A stretch of DNA of 21,584 nt from Okeania sp. Its GTDB lineage: Bacteria; Cyanobacteriota; Cyanobacteriia; Cyanobacteriales; Microcoleaceae. The position numbers and the translations under genes were made by a program. Shown here piece after piece: positions 126-15,047 of this stretch (position 1 is the first letter of the stretch; the number at the start of each line of letters is the position of its first letter). The stretch is from the NCBI RefSeq assembly GCF_035285525.1, contig NZ_JAYKGW010000076.1, positions 1 to 21,584 of the forward strand. The letters are read 5' to 3'. The notes under the pieces are model-generated. The model searched no databases. It saw nothing but the letters and a program-made list of their open reading frames with translations, and had not been told where the DNA came from.

Positions 126-1196
<1,071 letters not shown>

Positions 1197-1930: not shown

Positions 1931-2640
1931 ATGAACCAAGCAACAGAAACAAAGACTAATTATAGTTTTGACGCCATAAAAGAAGCTCATACTTTGTCTG
2001 GCGATCCTGAAAAGCTACAAGAATATTATGATCAATGGGCAGTAGCTTACGATGATGATGTATCTAGTGAAGAGTATATCGGCCCTAAGTACATTGTAGA
2101 TATCTTAGGAAGTCTCAAAGGTGATAATGACTTGAAAGCAATGGATGGAAGTGATAAAAATATAAAAATCCTAGATGCAGGATGCGGTAAAGGTTTAGTG
2201 GGTACTGTCCTCAAAACCAAAGGTTATCATTATGTAGATGGATGCGATCTATCTGAAGGCATGGTAGAAAAAGCTCGTTCGAGAGGTGCTTATAATGTTC
2301 TGGAAATTCGAGAGGTGCTTATAATGTTCTGGAAAGTGGAATCGACCTTACTAAAATAAATGAGGTTTATGAAGACAAGCAATATGATGCTACAGTTTGT
2401 TGTGGGGTATTTACTTTAGGTCATGTGCCTCCAACTGCCTTATTAGAACTAATCCGGATTACCAAACCAGGTGGCTGGGTAGTAGTAAGCACCCGCAAGA
2501 GCTATTACGATAGCACGAATTTCCAAGAAGTTTGCGATCGCTACCAACAAGAAGGTAAAGTCAAATTGGTCAATCATGTCAAAGATGGTCCATATATTGC
2601 TGAAGAAGGGGCACATTATTGGGGATTTGTAGTTTGCTAA
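1931..2640 (+). pseudogene. Class I SAM-dependent methyltransferase, frameshifted by a 29-bp tandem duplication
   Basis: ORFs 1931-2359 and 2425-2640 are the two halves of one gene. Motif I is ILDAGCGKGLVG, with DLSEGMVEKAR after it. The C-terminal half contains ITKPGGWVVVSTR. Deleting one 29-bp repeat unit joins them in frame (..RGAYNVLESGIDLTKINEVYEDKQYDATVCCGVFTLGHVPPTALLE..) and gives a 226-aa protein. Confidence 0.8.
2278..2335. repeat. Perfect 2 x 29-bp tandem duplication
   Basis: TTCGAGAGGTGCTTATAATGTTCTGGAAA occurs at 2278-2306 and again at 2307-2335, 29/29 identical. The flanking bases differ on both sides, so the unit is exactly 29 bp, which is not a multiple of 3. Confidence 0.95.
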
Positions 2641-3052
2641 TTAAACAACTATAATAAGCAAAAAGCAAAAGCTAGCTAACTAACCATAATATAGGTTTGG
2701 CGATCGCCTCCAGCTAGTTTGACCTTGGATGTTGATTCTAATAATTTTTTCACCCTTGAAAAGTTATGCAGCACTATTCCTAATTCTATCTATGAATAGG
2801 AGGTGGTTAATAGTGTTGTTCAGGTACTGTTTTTGGTTAGTCTTAGTATTTTTAAATTGCTCTTAATTATTTTCCTATAGGGCAAAAAAGTTAAACAGAA
2901 AAACTGATAGAATCAACTCCCTAGGTTTTACCAAAAAATTAACTATTTTCTATAAAAATAGAGTCAAGCAAAAATTAGCTAACTCTATAATTTTTGTTGC
3001 AGAAATAGGAAATATCAAATAGAAACTTGAACTATTATTAAAAATTAATTCT

Positions 3053-3982
3053 ATGAAAAGTTTGCCAATTATCTCCTTATCAGAATTAGAAAAAGCTAGT
3101 CAACAAGAAATTAAAAAATTGTATGATGTCTGCGATGAACATGGTTTTTTCTATCTGAAAGAACATGGAGTTTCTTCAGAAATAGTTAATCAAACTATTG
3201 AAGCATCCCGGAAGTTTTTTGAACTACCTGAAGATGTTAAATTAAACTACCGTCAAGATATTCAAAAAGTTTATCCCAAAACTTGTAGAGGTTACGTTCC
3301 TTTGTATGGAGAATTTCTGAATAAAGAAATTGGATTTGACCCCAAACAAGTTTTTGATTTAGGTATAGAAAGACCCCTATCTGAAGAACCCTTTACAGGT
3401 CCGACAGTTATACCTGATGATAGTGTAGCTCCTGGTTTTGCCAGTTCTCATTATCAGCTACAAAATGAAATTATGACCAAGGTAACTCCTAAATTATTAA
3501 AAGGATTAGCTTTAGCTTTAGGATTAGAAGCCAGTTGGTTCGACAAATATTTTACAGAACCGACATTAATTCAGCGGACGATATATTATCCAGCAGGGAC
3601 AGGAAAAGCAGGAAAACATACCGATAATGGCATATTTACAGTTTTAATTCAAGAATATTTTCCTGAGCCTTCTTTGAGGGTTCATACTAAAGAAGAATGG
3701 ATAGATGCTCCCTGTGTAGAAGATACGTTTGTGATTAATTTAGGGGATTTGTTACAAATGTGGACAAACAGATTATTTGTTAGTACACCCCATGAAGTAA
3801 TTCATCGTAATTCTGAAGCAACTCGAATATCAATTCCCTTTTTTGTTTATCCGAATATTGATGCAATAATTGAACCATTTGGTACTACTGAAAAAATTAG
3901 TTCTAAGGAAGTAATGTTGAAGAATTTTGTATCAATTTGGGAAACTTATGAAGGAGCAGGTAGGGCAAAAGAATTAGTTTAA
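3053..3982 (+). CDS. 2-oxoglutarate/Fe(II)-dependent oxygenase (IPNS/ACC-oxidase-like fold)
   Basis: N-terminal DIOX_N-like segment: LPIISLSEL...CDEHGFFYLKEHGV. Facial triad HTD in GKHTDNGIFTVLIQ, distal His in TPHEVIH, and the 2OG-binding RxS in TRISIPFF. Confidence 0.85.
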   Translation: MKSLPIISLSELEKASQQEIKKLYDVCDEHGFFYLKEHGVSSEIVNQTIEASRKFFELPEDVKLNYRQDIQKVYPKTCRGYVPLYGEFLNKEIGFDPKQVFDLGIERPLSEEPFTGPTVIPDDSVAPGFASSHYQLQNEIMTKVTPKLLKGLALALGLEASWFDKYFTEPTLIQRTIYYPAGTGKAGKHTDNGIFTVLIQEYFPEPSLRVHTKEEWIDAPCVEDTFVINLGDLLQMWTNRLFVSTPHEVIHRNSEATRISIPFFVYPNIDAIIEPFGTTEKISSKEVMLKNFVSIWETYEGAGRAKELV

Positions 3983-4297
3983 TTGAGGTAAACATTCAGC
4001 TATCAGCTATTGTTTTGAGAGCTGATTTATCAAGTAAATATTAAGGCGCTGAAATACTTGCTATACTTAGGAGTTTTGTTAAGTAGATTGTTATTAATTG
4101 CTAAAAGCTAGGTAATATAATGCTTTTGGCGAAGTTTACAAATAACATCATATCCGGTAGCATCGGATTTTTCGGGCATCGTGCGTGAAAATCAAGGTGG
4201 AAATGGCATAAAAGCTTCTGCCTTCAGCATAGCTGCCTTCTGCCTTCCTTCGACCAAAGTCTAATTTTATATTTTATTTGTAGAGAAAAAATGTGAA

Positions 4298-5614
4298 ATG
4301 AAAAACAAAGCTACAGTTGCTTATATTGGAACAGGTCACATGGGACGACCTATGATTTTTAAACTCTTAAAATTAGGGTATTCTGTGCAAGTTTATGATA
4401 AATATCCAGAAGCAGCTAAAACAGTGATTGAAGCAGGAGCGGTTTGGTGTAATAGTCCAAAAGAAGTTGCTCAGAATGCTGATATTGTAATCACTAATCT
4501 ACCTTTAGCCCATCATATTACAGAGAACATATTAGGGGAAAATGGAGCTTTGGTTGGAATGAAAACTGGCTCGACTTGGATTGATTTTTCAACTACAGAT
4601 TACCATAATACCAAGCATATTGCTGAAGAAGCTAGGAAAAAAGGTGTCTATAGTCTAGAAGTTCCCGTGAGTAATTTATCCCACATGGGGGTAGATTTTG
4701 GTAACATCAGTTTTTATGTTAGTGGAGATCGAGAGGGTTTTGACGCTAGTCAGGAAGTTTTGAATGACATAGGCAAAATATCCTTCTTCGTTATGAGTAA
4801 AATTGGCGAAGCACAGGCTGTAAAGCTTTTGACTAATTTACTGTGTTATACTGCTATAGTAGTTTTGGGGGAAGTGCTGGCGATCGCTAAAACCCATGAT
4901 ATTCCCTTAGATTGGATGTGGGAGTTTATGAAGGCATCCAAAGCTAATAGTTTTGCCGCAGAACAAATTTCTCCATTTATCTTTGATGGCAGTTACGACT
5001 ATTCCTGTAGTTTGGAGATTGCAGCTAAGGATAGTGATTTAACTGTGAAATTAGCTGAAGAGTTCAATTTGCCTTTACCTATAGGGAGAATTATTAAGGA
5101 TAGATATCAGCAAGCTGGAGAGGCATATAAATTCTCTGAAAATTATATCATTGTGACTAAATTAGTTGAAGATGAGAATAACTTAGATTTAAGAATACCA
5201 AGATTTACAGCACCTTCCCCTTATGGTTTAAATCGGAACTATGTTTATTCTAATAAGTTTGTTAAAGATGATTTTGGTCGGATCAAACCTTATCCCTATC
5301 AATTCAACTATGATAGACCTGAGCAAAAATTACAAGAACCCTTAGAAGAAATTGCTCAAACTTTGACAGAGTTGATGGCTTATGTCAATTACTTGGTTTT
5401 ACAGGAGTCTTATAAATTAGGTCAGAATATAGGATTAAGTCAAGATTTATTAGTTAAAGTTATTCGCTGGGGTTGTGGAAGTAGTTGGGTTTCTGATAAT
5501 GAAAATTCCTATCAACCTAATGATGAAATAATCGCCAAATTTAAAGACTATAACTTTGAGCAAAAAGTTAAGACTCCCGCTATCAATAAAATAATTTCTG
5601 TGTTAGAAAAATGA
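4298..5614 (+). CDS. NAD(P)-dependent beta-hydroxyacid dehydrogenase-like oxidoreductase (HIBADH/6PGDH family) with a long C-terminal extension, paralog A
   Basis: N-terminal Rossmann motif VAYIGTGHMGRPM. The family motif with the catalytic Lys is IGEAQAVKLLTNLL. The protein is 438 aa, against about 290 aa typical of the family. The last ~140 aa (LTELMAYVNYLVLQESYKLGQNIGLSQDLLVKVIRWGCGSSWV) look like a second copy of the all-helical C-terminal domain. Confidence 0.75.
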   Translation: MKNKATVAYIGTGHMGRPMIFKLLKLGYSVQVYDKYPEAAKTVIEAGAVWCNSPKEVAQNADIVITNLPLAHHITENILGENGALVGMKTGSTWIDFSTTDYHNTKHIAEEARKKGVYSLEVPVSNLSHMGVDFGNISFYVSGDREGFDASQEVLNDIGKISFFVMSKIGEAQAVKLLTNLLCYTAIVVLGEVLAIAKTHDIPLDWMWEFMKASKANSFAAEQISPFIFDGSYDYSCSLEIAAKDSDLTVKLAEEFNLPLPIGRIIKDRYQQAGEAYKFSENYIIVTKLVEDENNLDLRIPRFTAPSPYGLNRNYVYSNKFVKDDFGRIKPYPYQFNYDRPEQKLQEPLEEIAQTLTELMAYVNYLVLQESYKLGQNIGLSQDLLVKVIRWGCGSSWVSDNENSYQPNDEIIAKFKDYNFEQKVKTPAINKIISVLEK

Positions 5615-5665
5615 GATAAATCAAGAAATTTCATAAATGACAAAATAGAGAGATTTTAAACTAAA

Positions 5666-5770
5666 CAGAACTTACACAAACCAAGCAAGAAACCAGCTTT
5701 ATTCCGGTAACTCTTGTTTTTTAAACCAGGAAATTTCTTTGATAAAGCAGGTTTCTGTGTACGTCTTACT
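5666..5770. repeat. Degenerate MITE-like inverted-repeat element (CAGGACTTACA family)
   Basis: Left end CAGAACTTACACA (5666-5678) and right end TGTGTACGTCTTACT (5756-5770) are imperfect inverted copies. They resemble the termini of the elements at 13320, 13552 and 17178. An internal GAAACC/GGTTTC pairing is present. Confidence 0.4.
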
Positions 5771-5797
5771 AAAGTAAACTAAGCAGGATTTAAAACA

Positions 5798-6535
5798 ATG
5801 AAAAAAATATTAGCTTTGTGGGCAGTACCACGGTCAACTTCCACTGCATTTGAGCGTATGATGCGAGAAAGAGGAGATTTTGCCGTACATGATGAACCTT
5901 TTGGAAAATCTTTTTACTACTCCGAAGAACGTTGTGATACAACTCGTTATCCAGATATAAAACCAGATCCCCAATACAATTTTAGTTGTATTTTGGAAAA
6001 ATTAAAGCAAGAAAATGAACAGCAACCAGTTTTTATTAAAGATATGAGTTACCAGGTTGAACCTGTAGCTAATCAAGAGTTTTTGTCTAATTTTAATAAT
6101 AGTTTTCTGATTAGAAATCCAGAAAAAATGTTGCCTTCTCTTTTTAATAATTGGTCTGATTTTACTTTAGAAGAAACTGGATATGCTCAACTTGATAAGT
6201 TATTTGAAATGACTAAAGAAATTACTGGGAAAATACCAGTAGTAATTGATTCGGATGATTTAGTTAAAAAAACCAAGGCAACTGTTAAAACCTATTGCAA
6301 TGCTATGGATATATCATTTATTGAAGAAGCTTTAGAATGGAAATCTAAACCTCAACCTGAAATTAATCAATGGGAAGGGGGGTGGCATAATTATGTGTTA
6401 TCCAGTCAAGGATTTAAAGAAAGAACAAAAAAAGATTATGTCAAGATTGAAGATAGCGAACACCTAAAGCAAGCTTATGATTTTTGTTTACCTTATTACC
6501 AAAAACTTTATGAATATCGGTTGCAGATTGAATAA
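5798..6535 (+). CDS. Sulfotransferase-like P-loop protein, paralog A
   Basis: VPRSTSTAF near the N-terminus resembles the 5'-phosphosulfate-binding loop P-(K/R)-(S/T)-G-(S/T)-T. LIRNPEKMLPS resembles the 3'-phosphate-binding R-x-P-x(5)-S motif of PAPS-dependent sulfotransferases. It is about 50% identical by eye to ORF 11401-12138. The assignment rests on motifs only. Confidence 0.6.
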   Translation: MKKILALWAVPRSTSTAFERMMRERGDFAVHDEPFGKSFYYSEERCDTTRYPDIKPDPQYNFSCILEKLKQENEQQPVFIKDMSYQVEPVANQEFLSNFNNSFLIRNPEKMLPSLFNNWSDFTLEETGYAQLDKLFEMTKEITGKIPVVIDSDDLVKKTKATVKTYCNAMDISFIEEALEWKSKPQPEINQWEGGWHNYVLSSQGFKERTKKDYVKIEDSEHLKQAYDFCLPYYQKLYEYRLQIE

Positions 6536-6591
6536 GTTGTTGGGCATTAGTAATAGAAACCTCTAGAAAAGAGGCAATAGGCAATAGTTGA

Positions 6592-6834
6592 GCAATTAAT
6601 AATGAACAATTAATAATTAGGGTTTGCTGATTTATCGGGAACCGTAAAATTGGGAGAAAAGTATATTAAAAAATACATAGTGAAGTGATAAATGTAGACA
6701 AGATTCTTCCTCCCCATCCTCCCATAAGGGTTTCAAGAGTTCCCGATCGGGGATAGCTTAAAAAGGGAGGTTTTAAACCAGGATTGTTGAACGAATAATT
6801 ATTGAGTATCAACTCTTAATTATTAATTATTTGG
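6592..6834. repeat. Element bounded by inverted AT-rich (AATTAATAATTA) blocks
   Basis: Left block GCAATTAATAATGAACAATTAATAATTA (6592-6619). Right block GAATAATTATTGAGTATCAACTCTTAATTATTAATTATTTGG (6793-6834). TAATTATTAATT is the reverse complement of AATTAATAATTA. The interior carries TAGGGTTTGCTGA, CGGGAACCGTA and a CCTCCCC/GGGGA segment. Confidence 0.4.
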
Positions 6835-6935
6835 TAATAAAAATAATTGATAATTTATGTAATATAATTGACTTGATTTTGGATTTTTGAAGATGTCTAA
6901 TAGCTCTTGAAATTGATGATAATAAATAAAAGATA

Positions 6936-7640
6936 ATGATTAATGAGTATGTTGAAATAGCCAATTATTATGATAATCTATTGACCAGTGGATACTTTGA
7001 CTTTAATTACCTAAGCAATAGCTTGTACAATTTACTTGGTGCTAGAAGAAAAGTTTTAGATATTGGTGTAGGAACTGGATTACTTACTGAAAAAATGCTT
7101 TCCTTAGCAAACTATAAGATTGTTGGTGTTGATTTTTCTCCCCGAATGTTAGAAATTGCTAAAAAGAGATTAGTAAATTCAAATGTTAAGTTGATTTGTG
7201 AAGATATTACAGAATTTGAAACTGAGGAAAAGTTTGATGCTATAGTTTCAACTGGAGGTGTTATTTGTATATTAGAAGAAAATGGAGAATATAGAATTTC
7301 TAGTCACATAATCGATCCAGAAAAAAATAAACAGTTGCTGGGAAAGTTACACAGTCAGTTAGATCAGGGTGGGTTGTTAGCATTAGGCATTCAGGAAACT
7401 CATACTAACTATAAAAAGGAAATCAAAGATCAGATTTTTTATGAACAAAAAATTAAGCAGGAGGAAAATTATGTTGATAAGTGGTATGTGTTTTCTCAAG
7501 CTAATGGAAACATTTTGAGCGAACAATTTTGCCGTTTTTATGTTTTTGATGGACGAGAAACAAATAAAATCCTGGCTAATGCTGGATTTCAGCAAGGATA
7601 TAAGATTATTGATGGCAAGTTTTTAGTCAGCTACAAATGA
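6936..7640 (+). CDS. Class I SAM-dependent methyltransferase
   Basis: Motif I VLDIGVGTGLLTE, the post-I acidic residue in VGVDFSPRMLEIAKKR, and FDAIVSTGGV. The stop lies 10 nt before the next start, so the two genes are probably co-transcribed. Confidence 0.8.
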   Translation: MINEYVEIANYYDNLLTSGYFDFNYLSNSLYNLLGARRKVLDIGVGTGLLTEKMLSLANYKIVGVDFSPRMLEIAKKRLVNSNVKLICEDITEFETEEKFDAIVSTGGVICILEENGEYRISSHIIDPEKNKQLLGKLHSQLDQGGLLALGIQETHTNYKKEIKDQIFYEQKIKQEENYVDKWYVFSQANGNILSEQFCRFYVFDGRETNKILANAGFQQGYKIIDGKFLVSYK

Positions 7641-7650
7641 TATAGCAATT

Positions 7651-8724
7651 ATGACACAATTAATGAATGCTGTTCTTCTCACTGGGTATGGGGGACTGGA
7701 AAAATTGGAATATACCCAAGTAGCAAAACCCATTCCTCAGCAGGGAGAAGTTTTAATTAAAGTGGGTGCTTGTTCTGTTAATAATACAGACATAAACACC
7801 CGTACAGGATGGTATGCAGCAGATGAAGGGTTTCAAGAAATCCTTCAAGATACCAAGAAAAATGATGAGGAAAAATCTACAGGTTGGTCTCAGACTGGGA
7901 TACAATTTCCTAGAATCCAAGGAGCAGATATTGTGGGTAAAGTTGTAGAAATAGGGGCAGATGTTGAACCTAAATTTCTCAATCAAAGAGTAATTGTCGA
8001 TCCGTGGATTCGATTCGGAAATCTGGAAAAATATAAGTATGTAGGTAGCGAACTGAATGGGGGTTTTGCTGAATATGTTGCTATTCCTGTAGGCAACGTT
8101 TGTTTGATAAATTCATCTCTGTCAGATGTAGAATTAGCTACTGTACCTTGTTCTTATTCGACAGCCGAAAATCTCTTGACAAAAGCAAGAGTTAGTGATA
8201 AAGATACTGTTGTAATTATGGGTGCTTCTGGCGGTGTGGGGAGTTCTGCCGTTCAGTTAGCTAAAATTAGAGGAGCAACAGTTATTGCAATTGTTGGACA
8301 AAATAAAGAACATTTAGTCAAGGATCTAGGTGCCGATTATATTTATCCTCGCAACGATGAATTAGCATCAAATTTGGCAAAGCATCAAATTACTGTTTCT
8401 TTGGATGTAGTAGGTGGAGAATATTTTGAGATAATTTTTAAAGCTTTGAGTATTGGGGGACGATATGTGACAGCAGGAGCGATCGCTTCTCCTCTGGTTG
8501 AGTTAGACTTGCGAGATTTGATTTACAAAGATACAGAAATGATTGGGGCAACTCGCTTTGAATCTCAAGTTTTTCAGAATTTGCTTGAGTATATTGAAAA
8601 AGGTTTATTGAAACCTCAAGTAGCAAAAGTTTTTCCTCTGAGTCAAATCAAAGAAGCTCAGAAATTTTTTCAAAGTAAAGACTTTTTTGGAAAAGTTGTA
8701 ATTACACCTGAACAAAAATATTGA
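7651..8724 (+). CDS. Medium-chain dehydrogenase/reductase (quinone-oxidoreductase/zinc-ADH family)
   Basis: GEVLIKVGACSVNNTDINTRTG (GroES-like N-domain), GGFAEYVAIP, the NAD(P)-binding VVIMGASGGVGSSAVQLAKIRGATVIA, and a C-terminal FGKVVI. Confidence 0.85.
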   Translation: MTQLMNAVLLTGYGGLEKLEYTQVAKPIPQQGEVLIKVGACSVNNTDINTRTGWYAADEGFQEILQDTKKNDEEKSTGWSQTGIQFPRIQGADIVGKVVEIGADVEPKFLNQRVIVDPWIRFGNLEKYKYVGSELNGGFAEYVAIPVGNVCLINSSLSDVELATVPCSYSTAENLLTKARVSDKDTVVIMGASGGVGSSAVQLAKIRGATVIAIVGQNKEHLVKDLGADYIYPRNDELASNLAKHQITVSLDVVGGEYFEIIFKALSIGGRYVTAGAIASPLVELDLRDLIYKDTEMIGATRFESQVFQNLLEYIEKGLLKPQVAKVFPLSQIKEAQKFFQSKDFFGKVVITPEQKY

Positions 8725-8799
8725 CAAATGAAAACTAAGTTCTCTTGAGATGATAAAGTGACATAACATCTGAAAAAAATTAAAATTACAGAGAAAATA

Positions 8800-10113
8800 A
8801 TGACTAAACAAAAAGTTGGTTACATCGGCACTGGTGCGATGGGGAAACAAAACATCTACAAACTGCTGAAGGATGGGTATGAAGTGCAAGTTTATGATAA
8901 GTATCCAGAAGCAGCAAAACCAGTCATTGCCAAAGGGGCTATTTGGAAAGATAGTCCCAAGGAAACTGCCCAAGGGATGGATTTGGTGATTACTAATTTA
9001 CCCTTACCCCATCATGTACTAGAAAATATGTTGGGAGAAACTGGAGCAGCAGAAGGTATGAGAGAAGGTGCAACTTGGATGGATTTTTCTACAACTGACT
9101 ACCACAATACCCAACATATAGCAGGAGAAGTTGCCAAAAAAGGAATATTCAGTTTAGAATCTCCGGTGAGTAATTTATCTCACATGGGTGTAGATTTTTG
9201 TAATGTTAGTTACTATGTTAGTGGCGATCGCGAAGGCTACGATCTAAGTAAAGAAACCCTGGATGCGATGGGCAAAATTTCCTTTTTTGTGAGTAATACT
9301 ATCGGTGAAGCGCAAACAGTAAAACTCCTAACCAATTTGTTGTTTTATACACAAATGGTGACATTAGGGGAAGTTTATATGATTTGTAAAGTATATGGCA
9401 TTCCCTTGTTATGGATGTGGGAGTATATCAGACCATCTATAGGAAATAGTGTGCTGACAGAGCAAGTAAGTCCGTTTATTTTTGATGGCAGTTATGATTA
9501 TTCCTGTTCTTTAGAAATTACGGTAAAAGATACAGATTTAACAGTCAAGTTAGCTGATGAATTAAATGTTCCGTTACCGTTAGGGCGTATTGTGGAAGAG
9601 CGATATCGGGAAGCAGGGCAAAAATATGATGCCCATGATAATCATGTGAAAGTTACTAAATTAATTGAGGAAGATAATAATTTAGATTTGCGAGTTCCTG
9701 ATTTTACAGCTCCTTCTCCTTATGGTTTAGATCGGAGTTATGTTCATTCTGAAGAAAGAGTAACCGATAGTTTTGGGCGGATTAAACCTCTTCCCTATCA
9801 ACTAGAATATAAAGCACCAGAACCTTTGGAAGATGAGTATTTAATGGATATTGCTAAATCTCTGACAGATTTCATGGCTTATATCAATTACTTAGTCTTA
9901 GGGGAAGCTAACGATCTAGGGAAAGGTATGGGATTAACTGATGAGTTATTAGAAGATGTAATTCGTTGGAGTGTGGGAACCTGTTGGGTATCTGATAATA
10001 TTGATACTTATCAACCTAATCCAGAGATTGTGGAGAAAATTAAATCCTTTGATTTTTGCAGCAAGGTGAAACTTCCAGTTATGACAAAATTTTTGGCACA
10101 TCTGAGTCGTTAA
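8800..10113 (+). CDS. NAD(P)-dependent beta-hydroxyacid dehydrogenase-like oxidoreductase with a long C-terminal extension, paralog B
   Basis: VGYIGTGAMGKQN and IGEAQTVKLLTNLL. It is collinear over its full length with ORF 4298-5614 (437 vs 438 aa, roughly 60% identity by eye). Long identical runs include VQVYDKYPEAAK, FSTTDYHNT, PVSNLSHMGVDF, YVSGDREG and PFIFDGSYDYSCSLEI. Confidence 0.75.
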   Translation: MTKQKVGYIGTGAMGKQNIYKLLKDGYEVQVYDKYPEAAKPVIAKGAIWKDSPKETAQGMDLVITNLPLPHHVLENMLGETGAAEGMREGATWMDFSTTDYHNTQHIAGEVAKKGIFSLESPVSNLSHMGVDFCNVSYYVSGDREGYDLSKETLDAMGKISFFVSNTIGEAQTVKLLTNLLFYTQMVTLGEVYMICKVYGIPLLWMWEYIRPSIGNSVLTEQVSPFIFDGSYDYSCSLEITVKDTDLTVKLADELNVPLPLGRIVEERYREAGQKYDAHDNHVKVTKLIEEDNNLDLRVPDFTAPSPYGLDRSYVHSEERVTDSFGRIKPLPYQLEYKAPEPLEDEYLMDIAKSLTDFMAYINYLVLGEANDLGKGMGLTDELLEDVIRWSVGTCWVSDNIDTYQPNPEIVEKIKSFDFCSKVKLPVMTKFLAHLSR

Positions 10114-10142
10114 AGGAAGTTTTTCAACACTTTGATATTATG

Positions 10143-10178
10143 GTTTGCTCATCAAGTAATCAAAAAAATGAGCAAACT
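10143..10178 (+). terminator. Hairpin 30 nt after the stop of paralog B (candidate terminator)
   Basis: GTTTGCTCAT (10143-10152) pairs with ATGAGCAAAC (10169-10178), a perfect 10-bp stem with a 16-nt loop, followed by TATTTTA. Confidence 0.4.
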
Positions 10179-10195
10179 ATTTTAGCTCCCCCCTG

Positions 10196-10326
10196 CCCCT
10201 ATATCCCCCCTAACCCCCCTTCGTAAGGGGGGAACTGCTGAAAAAGGGGGGCACTTCAAAGTCCCCCTTTTTAAGGGGGGAACCGCTTAAAAAGTGGATA
10301 TTTCAAAGTCCCCCTTATTAAGGGGG
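10196..10326. repeat. Cluster of three C5-6/G5-6 hairpin repeats
   Basis: CCCCCC-TTCGTAA-GGGGGG (10214-10232), CCCCC-TTTTTAA-GGGGGG (10263-10280) and CCCCC-TTATTAA-GGGGG (10310-10326). The last two are each preceded by TTCAAAGT. The leader CCTAACCCCCC recurs at 21431-21441. Confidence 0.6.
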
Positions 10327-10344
10327 ATTTAGGGGGATCAAATA

Positions 10345-10476
10345 ATATCAAATCCGCATTTTATCGGTATAATTCACTTCCCGTAGGGGTTTGGTCTCCA
10401 AACCCTCTACAAACTAGGAGTTTTCGCTCTTTTTTGATAGTATTACCATTTTTTCCAAAGTAAGCGGATTTGATAT
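10345..10476. repeat. 132-bp element bounded by a perfect 13-bp inverted repeat (MITE-like)
   Basis: ATATCAAATCCGC (10345-10357) and GCGGATTTGATAT (10464-10476). There is an internal hairpin, GGGGTTTGG/CCAAACCCT (10386-10406). A solo copy of the left end, ATATCAAATCCGCTTAATTCGGTAT, occurs at 16040-16065. Confidence 0.5.
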
Positions 10477-10513
10477 AACCTCTAAGTCAACGATAAAAGG
10501 AGTATCAATAAAT

Positions 10514-11395
10514 ATGGACTTATTAGTCAATCAAATCAATCTATCCCAAGAAGAAAAACAGTTTTTTGCAGAAAATGGATTTATCAAATTGAAAAAACTG
10601 TTGACAAACGAAGCGATCGATGCCTTGCGAGAGCTAACTTCTAAAGCTACGAAAAGTCCTCCAAAGTTTTACTCTGGAGACTTTTCAAAAATGGGTTATG
10701 ACGTTGAAGAAGCGATTACACGAGATATCTATTCTTCTGCGAATTTTAAGGATGTTTTGAACCAATTAACAAATAATCGGGGAGTAGCTTTCATTCAAGG
10801 AATCGGATTTGAACTCGAACCAAATCAGAAAGGATTTAATTGGCATCACGATATTCTTTCATTTTGTTATGTCATGCCACAAGACTGGGCATATACTATG
10901 TGGATACCGCTCGATCCGATTAATATAAAAGAGCAACATGGAGGATTGTCCTATGTTTCTCGCCAAGTTCATTCTGCCCGCCAGTATTTTGACATGGTTT
11001 ACCAGTTAGTGCAACAAGAGAATATTTCTGAGTTCTCCCAGACTGAAGAGTTTAAGGATTGGAATTTTCAATATGCTTCCCCAGTTGAAACTTTTCTTCT
11101 GGATAAGAATAAAGTAGAAGATGATTTTGAAGTAGGTGATGCCCTTTTGCTAGACAAATTTGTTTGGCACAAAAGCTGCACTTTAAAAGAGGGAAAATTA
11201 CCATCAAGAATGGCTTATGTGATGCGTTTTGTCGATCGCCAAGCCCGCTACTCAAGAGTTTTTATTGAGGGAACCTACTCTATTTTAAATTCTACTACCA
11301 AAGATCTTGACAGTGATATTGGCTATCAACTAGGTAAATTTCTCCAAGATGGCGACATTATTTCTGACAACCTCGAAAGTTTAAAGAGCTACTAA
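10514..11395 (+). CDS. Phytanoyl-CoA dioxygenase (PhyH) family Fe(II)/2OG oxygenase
   Basis: N-terminal FFAENGFIKLKKLL, typical of the PhyH family. HxD is in NWHHD and the distal His in FVWHKS. An AAAGGAG Shine-Dalgarno-like sequence sits about 10 nt upstream of the ATG. Confidence 0.75.
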   Translation: MDLLVNQINLSQEEKQFFAENGFIKLKKLLTNEAIDALRELTSKATKSPPKFYSGDFSKMGYDVEEAITRDIYSSANFKDVLNQLTNNRGVAFIQGIGFELEPNQKGFNWHHDILSFCYVMPQDWAYTMWIPLDPINIKEQHGGLSYVSRQVHSARQYFDMVYQLVQQENISEFSQTEEFKDWNFQYASPVETFLLDKNKVEDDFEVGDALLLDKFVWHKSCTLKEGKLPSRMAYVMRFVDRQARYSRVFIEGTYSILNSTTKDLDSDIGYQLGKFLQDGDIISDNLESLKSY

Positions 11396-11400
11396 AAACA

Positions 11401-12138
11401 TTGAAAACCCAGAAGATATTAGTTTTATGGTCTACTTTGCGATCGACCTCTACAGCCTTTGAAACTATGATGCGACAGAGAGGGGATTTTCTGGTACTCC
11501 ATGAACCCTTTAGTCTATATTATTACAGGAGTCAGGAGAGGAAAAGCGATCGCTATGCTGAGTATAGTAGGGATTCAAACTTCAATTTTGAAACGATATT
11601 TCACAGCCTAATAGAGAAGGCTAAAAACCAGCCTTTGTTTATTAAAGATATGGCATATTATATTGTGGATAAAGCCAATCCAGAATTTTTGAATCACTTT
11701 GAACGCACTTTTCTGATTCGCGATCCAGCAAAATCTCTTCCTTCTCTATTTAGCTTATGGCCGGATTTTAGTTTAATTGAAGCTGGATATGCGCAGATGT
11801 ATCAATTATTTGAACTCACTAAAGCCTTTCTCGGAAAAAACCCTCCTGTGATTGACTCAGATGATTTAGTCCAAAAACCAGAAGCGACGGTTAAATGTTA
11901 CTGCGATGCAGTGAAAATCCAATTTATTCCTAAAGCCCTGAAATGGGAAACTAAAGTCCCCCAAGTTCCTAAATGGGTAGAAAATTGGCATACCAATTTA
12001 CAATCCACTCAAGGATTTGAACAAAGGACAAAAGATTTTCAAGTGGGTATTGAAGACAACGACTACTTAAAGAAAGCCTATGACTATTGTTTTCCTTATT
12101 ATCAAAAAATGTCTGAATATCGACTACGGATTCAATAA
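11401..12138 (+). CDS. Sulfotransferase-like P-loop protein, paralog B (TTG start)
   Basis: LRSTSTAF and LIRDPAKSLPS motifs, as in paralog A. It shares the C-terminal signature PYYQK..EYRL.I. The start is a TTG 5 nt after the PhyH stop; no in-frame ATG would retain the P-loop. This suggests translational coupling with the PhyH gene. Confidence 0.6.
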   Translation: MKTQKILVLWSTLRSTSTAFETMMRQRGDFLVLHEPFSLYYYRSQERKSDRYAEYSRDSNFNFETIFHSLIEKAKNQPLFIKDMAYYIVDKANPEFLNHFERTFLIRDPAKSLPSLFSLWPDFSLIEAGYAQMYQLFELTKAFLGKNPPVIDSDDLVQKPEATVKCYCDAVKIQFIPKALKWETKVPQVPKWVENWHTNLQSTQGFEQRTKDFQVGIEDNDYLKKAYDYCFPYYQKMSEYRLRIQ

Positions 12139-12144
12139 ATTGAC

Positions 12145-12153
12145 TGGTATAAT
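12145..12153 (+). promoter_or_regulatory. Extended -10 promoter element candidate
   Basis: TGGTATAAT matches the TGnTATAAT consensus. It lies 60 nt upstream of the ATG at 12213, in the 74-nt spacer after the sulfotransferase-like gene. Confidence 0.3.
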
Positions 12154-12212
12154 TTACTTAATTTAATGATACACAACTGATCCAAGTTATTCACTAAGAA
12201 TTAAATCCGCTG

Positions 12213-13316
12213 ATGAAAATATCTAAAATTTCCGTCTATCAAGTAACTTTACCCCTAGAACATCCTTACCGACTATCAGGTGGTAGATTGTATTTTGACA
12301 AACTTGATGCCACCATCGTTGCCATGGATACAGATGAAGGAATGCGAGGTTGGGGAGAAGGATGTCCTTGGGGTTCCACTTATTTACCCGCTTTTGCTAG
12401 AGGTATCAGAGCTGGTATTGAGGAACTTGCTCCTCAACTTATCGGACTCGATCCCAGACGTATTGATTTTATCTATCGAACAATGGATACTGCTCTCCCC
12501 GGTCATCCTTACATTAAGTCAGCTCTAGATATGGCTTGTTGGGATATTCTGGGTAAATCAACAGGTCTACCACTTTGCGAACTGTTTGGCGGTCGTCTTG
12601 ACCAAGAAATAACCATTCAAAATTCTGTTCCCACAGGTACTCCAGAAGAAATGATTGAATCCATTAAGCGGGGTCAAGCAAAAGGGGAAACTATCCATAC
12701 CTGTAAAATAGGAGCAGATGTCGCTTTAGATATTGAGAGGATTCAAGCGATCGGTGCTTATTTGCCAGCTAATGAAACTGCAACTTTTGATGTGAATAGA
12801 GCTTGGTTGGTAGATGATGGTATGCGGGTAATGAATTCGGTAAAAGAACCAATTTTGTATTTTGAACAACCTTGTGAAACTTATGAAGAGTGTTTACAGT
12901 TACGGAAACTGACTAATCATCCGATTATTTTAGATGAATGTATTCAAGCTTATGGTCATGTGGTTCGCGCTCAAGCTGACCGTGCTTGTGAAGCTATTGG
13001 ATTAAAGATTGGTCGGGTAGGAGGATTAACTAAAGCCAAGCGTATTCGAGATTTTTGTGTGGAAACGGGAATTAAGATGAATATTGAAGTTACTGGGGGA
13101 AGTGTGATTGGAGATTCTGGAGCAGTTCATCTCGCTCAGAGTACCCCACTAACTCACTTGCGGGCAACTTGGTTATGCCATGAAATGTTGACTGTGGATA
13201 CGGCTACGGGTGGTGCCCGGAATCATGGGGGTAAGACTTTGGCGCCAGATGCTCCAGGTTTGGGTGTGGAGCCAATAATGGATGTTTTAGGTGAAGCGAT
13301 CGCTGTGTATGAATAA
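12213..13316 (+). CDS. Enolase-superfamily enzyme, mandelate racemase/muconate lactonizing enzyme (MR/MLE) family
   Basis: Capping domain: WGEGCPWGSTYLPA and PGHPYIKSALDMACWDILGK. Barrel domain: KIGADVALDIERIQAI, metal ligands in FDVNRAW, YFEQPC and ILDECI, and a general-base Lys in GLKIGRVGGLTKA. Confidence 0.85.
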   Translation: MKISKISVYQVTLPLEHPYRLSGGRLYFDKLDATIVAMDTDEGMRGWGEGCPWGSTYLPAFARGIRAGIEELAPQLIGLDPRRIDFIYRTMDTALPGHPYIKSALDMACWDILGKSTGLPLCELFGGRLDQEITIQNSVPTGTPEEMIESIKRGQAKGETIHTCKIGADVALDIERIQAIGAYLPANETATFDVNRAWLVDDGMRVMNSVKEPILYFEQPCETYEECLQLRKLTNHPIILDECIQAYGHVVRAQADRACEAIGLKIGRVGGLTKAKRIRDFCVETGIKMNIEVTGGSVIGDSGAVHLAQSTPLTHLRATWLCHEMLTVDTATGGARNHGGKTLAPDAPGLGVEPIMDVLGEAIAVYE

Positions 13317-13319
13317 AAT

Positions 13320-13411
13320 CAGGACTTACAGGGGAGGTACTATGTATGGAGTTCAAAAACTATTGCGCAATAGTTTTTGACGCTATGTCTAGGGTCGCTG
13401 GGTAAGTCCTA
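13320..13411. repeat. MITE-like element, copy A (TIR CAGGACTTAC/GTAAGTCCT)
   Basis: CAGGACTTAC (13320-13329) and GTAAGTCCT (13402-13410) are inverted termini. The core is a perfect 24-nt palindrome, AAAAACTATTGC|GCAATAGTTTTT (13355-13378). The element starts 4 nt after the MR/MLE stop codon. Confidence 0.65.
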
Positions 13412-13551
13412 ATATAGCAATGTGCGCATTTAATATTTACAAATCACAGGAACTGTCGAATAGCTAAAAGTCTTATGTTATAAGCAATTTATTCTTTCTG
13501 TTCCCACCTTTTCTGTTCCCTGTTCCCTGCGCACAGGGCTATAAATAGACT

Positions 13552-13654
13552 AGGATTTACACCGGAGGAACCCGGTTTCTAGGATAAATCGTTGCTTTGA
13601 ACAGTAATAATCTACCCTCGTACCGGGTTTTTGGGTTCGCCTGTGTAAGTCCTG
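13552..13654. repeat. MITE-like element, related family (TIR AGGATTTACAC/GTGTAAGTCCTG)
   Basis: The termini at 13552-13562 and 13643-13654 are inverted copies and resemble the copy A termini. Internal pairing is AACCCGGT/ACCGGGTT. Confidence 0.5.
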
Positions 13655-13666
13655 TAGACATTTACC

Positions 13667-13816
13667 GAATAATTAATAGTTAATAATTATTCATTCAAGA
13701 ACTCACGGCTGGAAGCCTCCCCTATCCTAGGGGATAAGTCAAAAATTTTCCTTTTAGTCAATCCTCTTCTTTGAAGAAGGGGTAATTATTAATTATTAAT
13801 TGTTGATTATTAATTG
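13667..13816. repeat. Element bounded by inverted AT-rich (TAATTATTAATT) blocks
   Basis: Left block GAATAATTAATAGTTAATAATTATTCATTC (13667-13696). Right block TAATTATTAATTATTAATTGTTGATTATTAATTG (13783-13816). The interior carries CCTCCCCTATCCTAGGGGA and a CTTCTTTGAAGAAG palindrome. The architecture matches 6592-6834 and 17468-17812. Confidence 0.4.
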
Positions 13817-13929
13817 CTGAATGTGAGATGATAATATTATGTCTAACTTATTAGCCAGAACAGGGAAGTTTTATGGAACCTCCCTACAAGGTTTTGGTTA
13901 TGGTGATGTGGTTTATTAAGAAAGAAAAG

Positions 13930-13938
13930 TGCTATAAT
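13930..13938 (+). promoter_or_regulatory. Extended -10 promoter element candidate
   Basis: TGCTATAAT matches TGnTATAAT and lies 39 nt upstream of the ATG at 13977. Confidence 0.3.
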
Positions 13939-13976
13939 ATCAAGCCATTAAGATTATCAGTTTAATATTTTTTTAT

Positions 13977-14675
13977 ATGCACAAAAACAAAGAACATCCA
14001 GAAACAAATTATAATGATTTTCCACACTGGATTTTTGGTGCTGAAATAGCTAACAGATTTACTGATGAGGCAGAAAAACATATTCCTGATTATTGGAGAG
14101 TAATAGAGCTAACAACTAATATATTGAAAGATAATTTATCGAAAGATAGTAATATTATAGATGTAGGTTGTGCGAGTGGAAATACATTATTATATTTATA
14201 CAAACAAGGTTTCCCAAATTTATTTGGAATAGATTCTTCTCAAGAGATGTTAAAAGTAGCTGGAAAAAATCTTAGTCAAGTTGAGAAAAATTTTCCCTCA
14301 AGACTTTTTTACTCACAAACATTTGTAGAAAATATGACTTTTAATGCTATTATTTGTAACTGGACTCTTCACTTTATTCAAGAAAGACAAGAATACTTAA
14401 AAGCTATTTTTGATTCTTTAGTTAGTCAGGGATTATTTATTCTGACAGAAAAAACTATTCAAAGTCAAATAATAGAAAATCAATATATAGTTTTTAAACA
14501 AAATAAAGGATTAAGTAATGAAGAAATTGAACGTAAGAAAAAACAATTAAAAGGTGTATTAAATCCCTGGTCTATCAGAGCAAATCTAGAGTTACTAACT
14601 CAAACTGGTTTTTCTCAAATAGAAATCGTAAATGCTAGACTAGGATTTGTAACTTTTTTGTGTATAAAACCCTAA
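13977..14675 (+). CDS. Class I SAM-dependent methyltransferase, CmoA-like
   Basis: Motif I IIDVGCASGNTL. The N-terminal segment FGAEIANRFTDEAEKHIPDYWRVIE resembles the CmoA-type F-D-x-x-A-x-x-F-x(5)-S-V-P-G-Y. NWTLHFI parallels the CmoA motif NFTLQF. The gene is very AT-rich compared with its neighbours. Confidence 0.7.
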   Translation: MHKNKEHPETNYNDFPHWIFGAEIANRFTDEAEKHIPDYWRVIELTTNILKDNLSKDSNIIDVGCASGNTLLYLYKQGFPNLFGIDSSQEMLKVAGKNLSQVEKNFPSRLFYSQTFVENMTFNAIICNWTLHFIQERQEYLKAIFDSLVSQGLFILTEKTIQSQIIENQYIVFKQNKGLSNEEIERKKKQLKGVLNPWSIRANLELLTQTGFSQIEIVNARLGFVTFLCIKP

Positions 14676-14752
14676 GTAAAAAACAGAATTTTTTTTCAAG
14701 GTAGACTTTTTTTGACAACCAACATTATTATCCAATCTTAACTTAGAGAGAA

Positions 14753-14962
14753 ATGATAGAAAACGAATCTTTTGTAATAGTTAAGAACAAACGCTTTCAC
14801 TACATTTGGTTACGGGATAATTGTCTTTCCCAGACAAGTCTTCATGCCACATCTTTTCAGAAACTCTATGACTTCAGCGAACAAAAAGAACTCCCCAAGC
14901 CAAAATTTGTTGATTTAACAAATAAGGAATTGATAATTGACTGGGATGAAAATCCTCCATAG
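14753..14962 (+). pseudogene. Remnant of a gamma-butyrobetaine-hydroxylase/TauD-type N-terminal domain (DUF971-like), truncated
   Basis: FHYIWLRDNC...LIIDWDENPP matches the start of the GBBH-like N-terminal domain (F-H-x-x-W-L-R-D-N-C-x-C-x-x-C ... L-x-I-x-W-x-D). Two of the three zinc-binding Cys positions are Ser here (CLSQTS). The frame ends after 69 codons in a TAG, and a dispersed repeat begins within a few nt (shared sequence from 14966). No catalytic-domain ORF follows. Confidence 0.6.
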
Positions 14963-14965
14963 CTG

Positions 14966-15047
14966 AAAAAAGCAGAGTGTGGTTCGTGTGGGGAGGGTGG
15001 GAAGACAGAGAGAGGCAGTAGGAGGAATAATTGTTCCTTAATTTTTC
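14966..15047. repeat. Composite dispersed repeat, copy 1 (A-run, GCAGAGTGTGG, degenerate 9-mers, AATAATTGTTCCTTAATTTTTC)
   Basis: It shares the 17-nt leader AAAAAAGCAGAGTGTGG (14966-14982) and a 22-nt trailer (15026-15047, 19/22 identical) with the element at 17842-17964. The internal G-rich 9-mer array is short and degenerate here. Confidence 0.6.

Follow-up and report, generated by a model that had tools for sequence, protein, structure and literature searches.

The closest published counterpart of the gene cluster described here is an orphan biosynthetic gene cluster (BGC) of Pseudomonas listed as 'NRPS 7' (PMC8719888), and that listing was the sole published trace of the cassette that we found. 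Our cluster occupies positions 1931–14962 (+ strand) of a 21,584-nt stretch of Okeania sp. DNA (NCBI RefSeq assembly GCF_035285525.1, contig NZ_JAYKGW010000076.1, positions 1 to 21,584; hereafter the window), and no description of the cyanobacterial cluster was found in the literature searched. 'NRPS 7' resembles it in having, within one operon, a methyltransferase, a DIOX_N-type Fe(II)/2-oxoglutarate (2OG) oxygenase, a long beta-hydroxyacid dehydrogenase (HIBADH)-like reductase, an MR/MLE 'epimerase' (38–48% identity), a Sulfotransfer_5 domain and a linked kinase. It differs in that the sulfotransferase forms the N-terminal domain of an adenylation-thiolation-reductase protein and a Rieske oxygenase replaces the reductase of the medium-chain dehydrogenase/reductase (MDR) superfamily; it also lacks the second sulfotransferase, the methyltransferases MT2 and MT3, and the TMLD-like and halogenase (Hal)-like genes.

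Parts of the cluster resemble other described systems. The dddQ neighbourhood of roseobacters (SPO1593/ISM_14095; PMC3338564, bioRxiv 10.1101/161257) shares a PF19798 sulfotransferase (38–46% identity), an MDR028-type reductase (42–48%) and an MR/MLE enzyme (46–58%). However, heterotroph islands of this kind also contain a Rieske oxygenase resembling GbcA, a demethylase resembling DMGDH, an Amdase-like gene directly 5' of the sulfotransferase, an RpiR regulator and occasionally DddQ. Methyltransferases, an IPNS-like oxygenase and a long HIBADH are missing from these islands, which appear to be catabolic. The pathways for hydroxyproline betaine, proline betaine and cis-3-hydroxy-L-proline (HpbD, c3LHyp dehydratase; Kumar et al. 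2014, PMC3950512) have in common with the cluster a region of the enolase superfamily, into which the MR/MLE enzyme falls, and a betaine-transporter context, whereas the window MR/MLE enzyme reached 378.7 bits against the NCBIfam HProlDhtase equivalog cutoff of 500, and the cyanobacterial cluster lacks their Rieske and flavin demethylases, D-amino-acid oxidase and delta1-pyrroline-2-carboxylate (Pyr2C) reductase types. The sulfotransferases of CurM and Ols (PDB 4gbm, 4gox), both from cyanobacterial small-molecule pathways that act on beta-hydroxy acids, provided the best structural match (E = 5.7e-6) and the best non-antibody profile match (E = 0.002) to the sulfotransferases of the window, with which their PRSxST loop and downstream R...S align. 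They are 13–16% identical and are domains of polyketide synthases (PKSs), whereas the window proteins are free-standing, 245 aa long and encoded without a thioesterase or acyl carrier protein (ACP). CurA Hal and the radical halogenases BtnX, which acts on biotin, and AspX (Kipouros and Chang, Nature 2026, PMC13489965) are homologous to a 293-aa window oxygenase along nearly all of its sequence, and the second His that binds iron is kept, but the HxG/A motif of the halogenases is HxD in the window protein and both of its orthologues; BtnX and AspX act on carbons adjoining a carboxylate (Kipouros and Chang, Nature 2026, PMC13489965). Finally, an intact orthologue in a related locus shares both domains of TMLD/BBOX and TmpA and scores below all three cutoffs, and the window keeps 69 aa of this protein.

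The window cluster comprises 12 consecutive, co-directional plus-strand genes, identified from the open reading frame (ORF) listing and assigned to families with Pfam and NCBIfam: three class I S-adenosylmethionine (SAM) methyltransferases (MT1–MT3), an IPNS-like oxygenase, two HIBADH-like reductases (HIB1 and HIB2), two Sulfotransfer_5 proteins (ST1 and ST2), one MDR, one MR/MLE enzyme, the 293-aa oxygenase and a 69-aa TMLD/GBBH fragment. An earlier first-pass annotation, made from the sequence alone, had listed 12 plus-strand genes of named families, and the ORF listing, Pfam and NCBIfam bore this out; its count of three methyltransferases held for the families, although the first of them, MT1, is a frameshifted pseudogene. 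The span is 80% coding, and the tight junctions that had been reported, 10 nt at 7640/7651 and 5 nt at 11395/11401, were both exact. The remaining intergenic gaps measure 74–660 nt, and five of them are 315–660 nt long, which makes a single operon for the whole of 1931–14962 unlikely. No PKS, non-ribosomal peptide synthetase (NRPS), terpene synthase or housekeeping gene was found by Pfam and NCBIfam inside the span, in agreement with the claim that no housekeeping gene is interspersed, and no scaffold synthase or precursor peptide (PKS, NRPS, terpene or ribosomally synthesised peptide) was present among window ORFs of at least 50 aa. The locus is a tailoring-enzyme gene cluster for a small metabolite, uncharacterised but not categorically new. 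We favour, with a probability of roughly 0.5, a pathway for making or remodelling a small acid derived from a betaine or an amino acid; this acid would be methylated, alpha/beta-hydroxylated and reduced, epimerised or dehydrated, MDR-reduced and O-sulfated. This figure, like the wording chosen for the alternatives below, is a rough judgement of separate and overlapping readings.

Related loci were gathered by sulfotransferase look-ups and a scan of genome collections, and all window proteins were compared by tblastn with 85 loci, cited here by L numbers. Nine cyanobacterial relatives came from the sulfotransferase-based gathering and a tenth (L090, in the complete Okeanomitos genome) from a later look-up. 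These 10 loci, from Hydrocoleum, Okeania, Sphaerospermopsis, Okeanomitos, Rivularia, Roseofilum, Phormidium and two metagenome-assembled genomes, carry 4–10 of the window gene families in shuffled order at ~50–95% identity. The compact and intact version at L012 consists of MT1, 2OG oxygenase, sulfotransferase, MT2, MDR, HIB, MT3, TMLD-like, MR/MLE and sulfotransferase genes, followed by two SMR genes and an SDR gene. A minimal version in Phormidium sp. CCY1219 (L026) contains HIB, MT1, 2OG oxygenase, MDR, MR/MLE and one sulfotransferase, and on this basis we define a cyanobacterial core of six genes, to which MT2, an MT3-TMLD pair, the halogenase-like hydroxylase, a second sulfotransferase, a second HIB and an SDR are added as accessory modules. 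The HIB1-ST1 pair recurs in L001, L002, L004 and L007, and HIB1-ST1(-SDR) stands alone in two Okeania genomes (L002 and L007); the SDR that accompanies the pair in relatives is absent from the window. Because the same gene set is kept across many genomes, the arrangement is beyond chance, and the cluster is a genuine, evolutionarily conserved unit. This is the result that the synteny comparison proposed with the first-pass annotation needed for its claim of a functional unit. Its narrower expectation, synteny of the HIBADH and sulfotransferase pair across cyanobacteria and marine bacteria, was borne out by recurrence in cyanobacteria but not in marine heterotrophs, where the sulfotransferase has other partners.

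Both window sulfotransferases scored above the curated PF19798 (Sulfotransfer_5) cutoff of 23.2 bits. ST1 (5798–6535, +; 5.8e-12, 46.0 bits) was most similar to proteins of Okeania hirsuta (92%) and Hydrocoleum sp. CS-953 (90%); ST2 (11401–12138, +; 3.5e-10, 40.1 bits), which has a TTG start codon 5 nt past the preceding stop, is 54% identical to ST1. In a phylogenetic tree the cyanobacterial sulfotransferases were monophyletic and formed two paralogue clades, ST-A and ST-B, corresponding to ST1 and ST2, respectively. A 5'-phosphosulfate-binding (5'-PSB)-like motif, PRSxSTAF (R12, S13, S15, A17-F18), and a 3'-phosphate-binding (3'-PB)-like motif, IRxPxxxxxS (R106...S114), were invariant in 20 diverse members. 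The loop, which reads PRSTSTAF in ST1, aligns with PRSGST of the CurM sulfotransferase, and the motifs match the 5'-phosphosulfate and 3'-phosphate binding elements of that enzyme. In ST2, the nearly invariant Pro11 of the 5'-PSB loop is replaced by Leu (LWSTLRSTSTAF), whereas aligned members, including ST2-like proteins, keep Pro, and this change may weaken ST2. The AlphaFold2 model of ST1 (pLDDT 90.9) gave 18 Foldseek matches in the PDB at E ≤ 1e-3, all of which were sulfotransferases, with CurM first, followed by tyrosylprotein sulfotransferases (TPST1/2), and with Ols ninth and heparan sulfate 3-O-sulfotransferases (3-OSTs) also among them; TM scores were low (0.39–0.51). Judged by profile, motifs and modelled fold, ST1 and ST2 are predicted to be 3'-phosphoadenosine 5'-phosphosulfate (PAPS)-dependent and are treated here as putative sulfotransferases, an assignment that agrees with the earlier one in that both PAPS-binding motifs are kept and the models fold like sulfotransferases. 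No characterised member of PF19798, a family of >1000 members, was found in literature and database searches.

The core oxygenase (3053–3982, +) has both domains of the IPNS/EFE-like Fe(II)/2OG family (DIOX_N 1e-22, 2OG-FeII_Oxy 7e-19), and its translation contains the H189-T-D...H iron triad and the R-I-S 2OG motif. Its best PDB match was 9ovh, annotated as an ethylene/succinate-forming enzyme (5e-41), followed by 6jyv, and orthologues in related loci are 47–93% identical. The accessory 293-aa Fe(II)/2OG oxygenase (10514–11395, +) had been labelled PhyH, but its match to PhyH (PF05721) was below threshold (E = 0.011, 16.5 bits against a cutoff of 22) and covered the N-terminal half alone; it is instead a relative of the CurA-Hal/BtnX clade (phmmer against the PDB: BtnX 9pv1 3e-31, CurA Hal 3nnf 1e-22). 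Its iron site reads WHHD, as do those of the L005 and L009 orthologues, compared to WHVG in BtnX and CurA Hal. A halogenase role was rejected on account of this HxD rather than HxG/A motif, and for the same reason hydroxylation or another O2-dependent reaction is expected, so that the protein should be a halogenase homologue of hydroxylase type.

HIB1 (4298–5614, +; 438 aa; NAD_binding_2 4e-36, NAD_binding_11 1e-22), which is paired with ST1, and its core paralogue HIB2 (8800–10113, +; 437 aa; NAD_binding_2 2e-31, NAD_binding_11 1.5e-24) are long HIBADH-like reductases that are 63% identical to each other. HIB2 is 87–93% identical to the core copy of L006, L008, L010 and L012, 61% to that of Thiomargarita and 48% to that of Pseudomonas. 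The best PDB match of HIB1 was tartronate semialdehyde reductase (1vpd, 1e-32). Both proteins belong to the HIBADH family and fall short of equivalog level (best 151.7 bits against 397), and their C-terminal extension of ~140 aa gave a faint NAD_binding_11 match alone. Since the catalytic Lys/Asn motif (A/T)VKLLTNLL is kept in both proteins (AVKLLTNLL in HIB1), motif reading identifies them as putative hydroxyacid or aldehyde reductases rather than imine reductases.

The MDR (7651–8724, +; ADH_N and ADH_zinc_N), core in most loci, is of the zinc-less quinone/enoyl-reductase type by motif reading: GAD (IQGADIVG) is found in place of the GHE of zinc-dependent alcohol dehydrogenases, and the N-terminal ACSVNNTDINTRTGWY is like that of quinone/enoyl reductases. 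Its best NCBIfam matches, PIG3-type quinone oxidoreductase and acryloyl-CoA reductase, were both below cutoff, and the best PDB match was 4j6f (1.4e-76). An AcuI-type function in acrylate detoxification was considered and dropped, because published work assigns the homologous MDR of the dddQ clusters to the MDR028 type and reports that acrylate sensitivity was not relieved by it. The core MR/MLE enzyme (12213–13316, +; MR_MLE_N 4.5e-17, MR_MLE_C 7e-32) is a member of the enolase superfamily below the equivalog level given above. Its best PDB matches were 2qdd (2.4e-115) and 3eez, then 4mgg (6e-93), with 4h2h and 4e8g at ~1e-52; the search output gave generic molecule names for these entries, and we take 2qdd and 3eez to be roseobacter proteins of the kind encoded in dddQ neighbourhoods and 4h2h and 4e8g to be HpbD.

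Among the methyltransferases, the core enzyme MT1 (1931–2640, +; Methyltransf_25/11), a class I SAM methyltransferase split into two ORFs in this copy, is METTL27-like (best PDB match METTL27, 7qcb, 2.9e-22). The accessory class I enzyme MT2 (6936–7640, +; Methyltransf_25 1.3e-16) lies 10 nt 5' of the MDR gene and has orthologues (82–85% identical) in L004, L012 and L015 only. MT3 (13977–14675, +), an accessory SAM-dependent enzyme assigned by Pfam, is CmoA/YecO-like (TIGR00740 105 bits against a cutoff of 193; PDB 1im8, 5.7e-18), and relatives always pair MT3 with a TMLD-like gene (L008, L010 and L012). The METTL27 likeness of MT1 and the CmoA/YecO likeness of MT3 do not discriminate between N-, O- and C-methylation.

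Taken together, these enzyme families would all work at or beside the carboxylate end of a small acid, with the MR/MLE enzyme acting on the alpha proton, HIBADH and SDR on a beta-hydroxyl or carbonyl, and the MDR on a C=C bond. In the pathway that we propose, MT1 would methylate a small polar carboxylic acid, with MT2 and MT3 in accessory roles, and hydroxylation together with carbonyl reduction at the alpha and beta carbons would install hydroxyl groups. The MR/MLE enzyme would abstract the proton alpha to the carboxylate, leading to epimerisation or dehydration, and the zinc-less MDR would then carry out a reduction. The two sulfotransferase paralogues would O-sulfate the molecule, giving a sulfated, methylated, osmolyte-like metabolite. 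Where present, a TMLD/BBOX-type addition would hydroxylate trimethylammonium compounds and the halogenase relative would hydroxylate beside the carboxylate. Gene content, intact catalytic motifs, linkage across genomes and the damage to two genes of the window copy were observed directly, and from these we infer the substrate class, step order, direction of synthesis and product. Synthesis is favoured over breakdown because the cyanobacterial version has methyltransferases and is without demethylases.

The neighbours of related clusters bear on the kind of molecule involved. A ProV/ProX-type ABC transporter lies directly 3' of the cluster in both Nostocales genomes (L005 and L090; ProX 882 bits), a PutP-like sodium symporter lies 3' of the Phormidium cluster (L026), and an SMR exporter pair lies 3' of the L012 cluster. 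An MscS channel is found within the Okeania sp. SIO3I5 cluster (L010, 1982–4174) and directly upstream of the cassette in Candidatus Thiomargarita nelsonii (L089, 1438–4902), a recurrent link that is consistent with osmolyte release. In Gammaproteobacteria, homologues of the long HIBADH occur in operons with OpuA-type transporters, creatinase-like M24 hydrolases, GbdR-like regulators and Rieske oxygenases. This operon company, together with the ProVWX, PutP-like, MscS and SMR neighbours, points to a zwitterionic or cationic, compatible-solute-like molecule. The earlier proposal of an amino acid, hydroxy acid or betaine as substrate fits the osmolyte transporters and channels that flank the relatives, the TMLD/BBOX/TmpA family hydroxylase and the place of the MR/MLE enzyme in the hydroxyproline/hydroxyproline-betaine clade; its failure to recognise any characterised pathway was matched by our literature search, which likewise found none.

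Sulfate might alternatively be added in order to be removed. On this account, which we consider unlikely, sulfation is a transient activation that turns a beta-hydroxyl into a leaving group, and the MR/MLE or another enzyme eliminates the sulfate, forming an enoate or a cyclised product that the enoyl-reductase-type MDR may reduce; what finally accumulates would then be free of sulfate. The best structural and profile matches of the sulfotransferase family are indeed the activating CurM and Ols enzymes, and the sulfotransferase, the MR/MLE enzyme and the enoyl-reductase-like MDR co-travel both in cyanobacteria and in heterotrophs. Moreover, the cluster of Roseofilum casamattae (L006, 1441–10732) contains a synthase of 2832 aa with the domain order FAAL-ACP-KS-AT-cMT-KR-ACP-TE. 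This PKS ends in KR-ACP-TE without a sulfotransferase of its own and is directly followed by a free PF19798 sulfotransferase. However, the CurM and Ols matches are remote (TM 0.43–0.51, 13–16% identity), TPSTs and heparan sulfate sulfotransferases score nearly equally, and enolase-superfamily dehydratases eliminate hydroxide without activation; the two conserved sulfotransferase paralogues per cluster would also suit two stable sulfate esters better. The earlier proposal of a sulfation step is supported by the PAPS-type motifs and by the sulfotransferase domain that adjoins the Pseudomonas cassette, but the O-sulfated end product is a prediction, and sulfation may be a passing activation as in CurM and Ols. 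We also observed that the L006 synthase is like the termini of curacin CurM and olefin synthases except that it is without a sulfotransferase domain, the free PF19798 protein being encoded 62 nt downstream, and L006 may represent a 'split' olefin-synthase-like system with a trans-acting sulfotransferase.

Searches with the long HIBADH recovered copies of the cassette in other phyla. In Candidatus Thiomargarita nelsonii (L089), HIB, MT1, 2OG oxygenase, MDR and MR/MLE genes (55–68% identical) form an operon of overlapping genes, which sits between the MscS channel and an NRPS-PKS hybrid (>2894 aa). In Pseudomonas (L086), methyltransferase, 2OG oxygenase, HIB and MR/MLE genes (38–48% identical) precede genes for a Rieske oxygenase, a LysR regulator and an EamA transporter. 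The next gene (13618–17368) encodes a Sulfotransfer_5-adenylation-thiolation-reductase protein with a sulfotransferase domain 28% identical to ST2; a search with this domain retrieved no full-length protein of the same architecture. The L086 locus matches 'NRPS 7', the listing of which adds a downstream dehydrogenase and kinase (Pacheco-Moreno et al., eLife 2021, PMC8719888). A second Pseudomonas lineage carries a degraded copy (L093/L094, 8032–11244) with MR/MLE, Rieske and sulfotransferase-domain pieces, followed by an adenosine 5'-phosphosulfate (APS) kinase, the counterpart of the 'NRPS 7' kinase. APS kinase is the enzyme that makes PAPS, and its linkage to the sulfotransferase-domain remnant lends indirect support to PAPS-dependent sulfation. 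The degraded copy adjoins conjugative-transfer genes, which suggests that the Pseudomonas cluster is mobile on an integrative element.

These neighbours raise a further alternative, namely that the cassette provides a PKS or NRPS assembly line with a modified acid or amino acid as a building block; in this Okeania genome the assembly line would be encoded elsewhere or lost. The hybrid directly 3' of the Thiomargarita cassette, the sulfotransferase-adenylation-thiolation-reductase gene beside the Pseudomonas cassette and the synthase inside the Roseofilum cluster all argue for it, and they limit the earlier statement that no scaffold synthase is present, which is correct for the window but not for the cassette at large. 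Nevertheless, a synthase is within reach in none of the other nine cyanobacterial loci, nor in the 21.6-kb window, and those loci are flanked by osmolyte transporters and channels. We regard a building-block role as distinctly unlikely for the cluster, although a building block and a free product may coexist across taxa.

Approximately 70 non-cyanobacterial loci with a PF19798 sulfotransferase were collected from roseobacters, other Alpha- and Gammaproteobacteria, Acidimicrobiia, Rubrobacter, Chloroflexota and sponge symbionts. Across all loci, the cyanobacterial ones included, partners of the sulfotransferase were the MDR (25), a DMGDH-like demethylase (22), the MR/MLE enzyme (21) and a GbcA-like Rieske oxygenase (20), and an Amdase-like (Asp/Glu-racemase-fold) gene was directly 5' of the sulfotransferase in 42 loci. 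In non-cyanobacterial loci, the MDR was present at 42–48% identity in 18 and the MR/MLE enzyme at 39–58% in 13, with both in 8. The sulfotransferase island of Ruegeria lacuscaerulensis (L068, 779–10741) contains a cupin of the dimethylsulfoniopropionate (DMSP)-lyase family, two MR/MLE enzymes, an MDR028 reductase, a DMGDH-like gene, RpiR and a GbcA-like Rieske oxygenase, and we identify it as a dddQ neighbourhood from the cupin. In published work, a case has been made that this neighbourhood breaks down (hydroxy)proline betaine rather than cleaving DMSP, and its MDR, of the MDR028 type, left acrylate sensitivity unrescued; the published discussions of it that we found do not mention the sulfotransferase.

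The cluster could also serve catabolism or salvage, taking up and converting an osmolyte from the environment, for example a hydroxyproline betaine or a compound resembling carnitine. Importers (ProVWX-type, PutP-like) adjoin it in L005, L090 and L026, the heterotroph islands with sulfotransferase, MDR and MR/MLE genes hold GbcA-like Rieske oxygenases, DMGDH-like demethylases, RpiR and DddQ and are proposed (hydroxy)proline-betaine degraders, and the Gammaproteobacterial HIBADH homologues sit in OpuA/creatinase-like/GbdR-like loci. Set against this, the cyanobacterial versions have 1–3 methyltransferases and no demethylases, and exporters (the SMR pair and EamA) as well as MscS are also nearby. 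In addition, known cyanobacterial betaine-synthesis genes are also located beside ProVWX. We therefore consider a catabolic role improbable and continue to favour synthesis or remodelling of a sulfated small acid.

Two genes of the window copy are broken. When the intact 226-aa orthologue of MT1 was aligned by tblastn, aa 1–125 matched 1931–2305 and aa 117–226 matched 2308–2637 in another frame. The frameshift is caused by a perfect (100%) tandem duplication of 29 nt (2278–2335, copies at 2278–2306 and 2307–2335), identified by a repeat search and by direct reading of the sequence, and deletion of one copy in silico gave a full-length 226-aa MT1 that was collinear with the L012 and L004 orthologues. 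Since the copies are identical and the remainder of MT1 is undamaged, the duplication is either a very recent event or an assembly error. The TMLD/BBOX/TmpA-family dioxygenase remnant (14753–14962, +; 69 aa; TIGR02410 1.8e-08) has lost the catalytic TauD domain. It had been described as a GBBH-type N-domain remnant, which is confirmed as to the fragment and corrected as to its origin: it corresponds to the N-terminal 69 aa encoded by a gene of 374 aa, which L008, L010 and L012 keep intact and in which a GBBH-like N domain is joined to TauD (1e-36 in L012). The remnant is 78% identical to aa 1–69 of the L012 protein, which scored 162–208 bits against the TMLD, BBOX and TmpA equivalogs, and DNA 3' of it gave no further match. 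Blastx of the window against all related-locus proteins found no further pseudogene remnants, such as of SDR or SMR, in the long spacers.

Tandem-repeat arrays of 9-nt (AGTGTGGGAAG-like) and 8-nt (GGGAGATG) units occupy intergenic positions 14967–15014, 17844–17954 and 19581–19676. The first begins 5 nt past the TMLD-like stop codon and has a leader, AAAAAGCAGAGTGTGG, in common with the array at 17844; this position and common leader suggest that a repeat-associated rearrangement removed the rest of the TMLD-like gene. An inverted repeat of 30 nt (83% complementary; 15106–15135/15776–15805) surrounds ~640 nt in the gap 3' of the cluster that hold no homologue-bearing ORF, possibly a miniature inverted-repeat transposable element (MITE) or a remnant of an insertion sequence (IS).

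With core MT1 frameshifted and the TMLD-like gene truncated, the pathway is probably impaired in this window. That the region is, in this genome alone, a decaying relic without current function is very unlikely: the MT1 frameshift by the 29-nt duplication, the TMLD-like gene cut to 69 aa and followed by repeats, the missing SDR of the HIB1-ST1 relatives and the Leu in the 5'-PSB loop of ST2 speak for it, but the other 10 genes are full length with motifs intact and 60–95% identity to orthologues, the duplication is perfect in an otherwise whole MT1, and MT2 might replace MT1.

Several observations weigh against a dedicated pathway to a sulfated, osmolyte-like acid. No gene for PAPS supply was found in the cyanobacterial loci, core MT1 is broken in the window, and the product need not carry sulfate at all, because the CurM and Ols sulfotransferases, the closest structural relatives, use sulfate as a leaving group. 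Although all superfamilies are known, none of the cluster enzymes reached an NCBIfam equivalog threshold, and neither they nor close homologues have a demonstrated substrate. The five gaps of 315–660 nt and the modular make-up, with HIB1-ST1 alone in L002/L007 and a separate MT3-TMLD pair, indicate that there is no fixed single operon. The adjoining ProVWX and PutP-like transporters are importers, so that uptake or remodelling fits as well as re-capture of a leaked product, and the cassette adjoins a PKS or NRPS in three taxa (Thiomargarita, Roseofilum and Pseudomonas), a position suggestive of building-block supply.

Provided that the pathway is real and operates in relatives, it points to a polar metabolite containing sulfur and nitrogen that current inventories of marine cyanobacterial osmolytes and exometabolites lack. 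A more far-reaching proposal, which we offer as a speculation with little chance of being correct, is that marine filamentous cyanobacteria make an undescribed sulfated, methylated osmolyte or infochemical that is the native substrate of the widespread heterotroph sulfotransferase/MDR028/MR-MLE islands, those with dddQ included, which would be the matching catabolic pathway. Were this true, the cluster would mark where a currency not yet recognised in the marine carbon, nitrogen and sulfur cycles is produced and where it is consumed, and would provide a first function for the PF19798 sulfotransferase family. The shared triad of sulfotransferase, MDR and MR/MLE genes gives a concrete way into the debate over what the DddQ gene neighbourhood natively does, and the cassettes beside assembly lines in Thiomargarita and Pseudomonas indicate that the same chemistry may supply an unusual natural-product building block. 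As the window copy is partly decayed, it is of lesser value on its own, and L012-type clusters, Phormidium sp. CCY1219 and Okeanomitos corallinicola TIOX110 are better entry points. A link to the homoserine-betaine pathway of Trichodesmium was dropped, as no named Trichodesmium was among the listed matches to the sulfotransferase or HIB homologues.

The spacer between MT1 and the core oxygenase (2641–3052, +) is a conserved non-coding segment with a mean column identity of 85% among the window, L012, L004 and L008, and is as conserved as the flanking coding DNA; one block was also found in L015. It is judged non-coding because its indels are 1 nt long. Invariant blocks at ~2723–2739 and 2906–2925 form a long-range inverted repeat or helix, and the consensus fold contained a long helix (z = -2.2) with one covarying pair only and no Rfam match. 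The spacer is a possible cis-regulatory element of the cluster. Consensus scans of the window for promoters (73 sites compared to 60.8 ± 8.6 in shuffled sequences) and terminators (14 compared to 10.6 ± 3.7) gave counts close to those of the shuffles, and an Rfam scan for riboswitches, which could have indicated a ligand, covered the window and six related cyanobacterial loci and returned none, the sole matches being a group II intron fragment and a tRNA. GC-rich palindromes (CCCCCTTnnTAAGGGGG) occur at 10215–10326, in the 400-nt spacer between HIB2 and the Hal-like gene, and at 19107–19144; near-identical copies are present in the Moorena and Sphaerospermopsis loci (L013 and L005), and they resemble a dispersed hairpin element.

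The window has a G+C content of ~35%, and its flanks hold a 5'-truncated enolase gene, an ABC-2 permease on the opposite strand, an Asp/Arg beta-hydroxylase and a GMC oxidoreductase. The flanking genes were placed outside the unit because they have a counterpart in no related locus, and the downstream Asp/Arg hydroxylase and GMC oxidoreductase were ruled out as cluster members on the same ground. Group II intron domains V–VI were detected at window positions 48–126 (+; RF00029, 53.6 bits), and an enolase-like translation (QEKITPALL...) resumes right after the intron end at ~126, with the enolase ORF at 192–1196. A group II intron thus appears to split the enolase gene, and the window begins within that intron; this accounts for the 5'-truncated form of its ORF.

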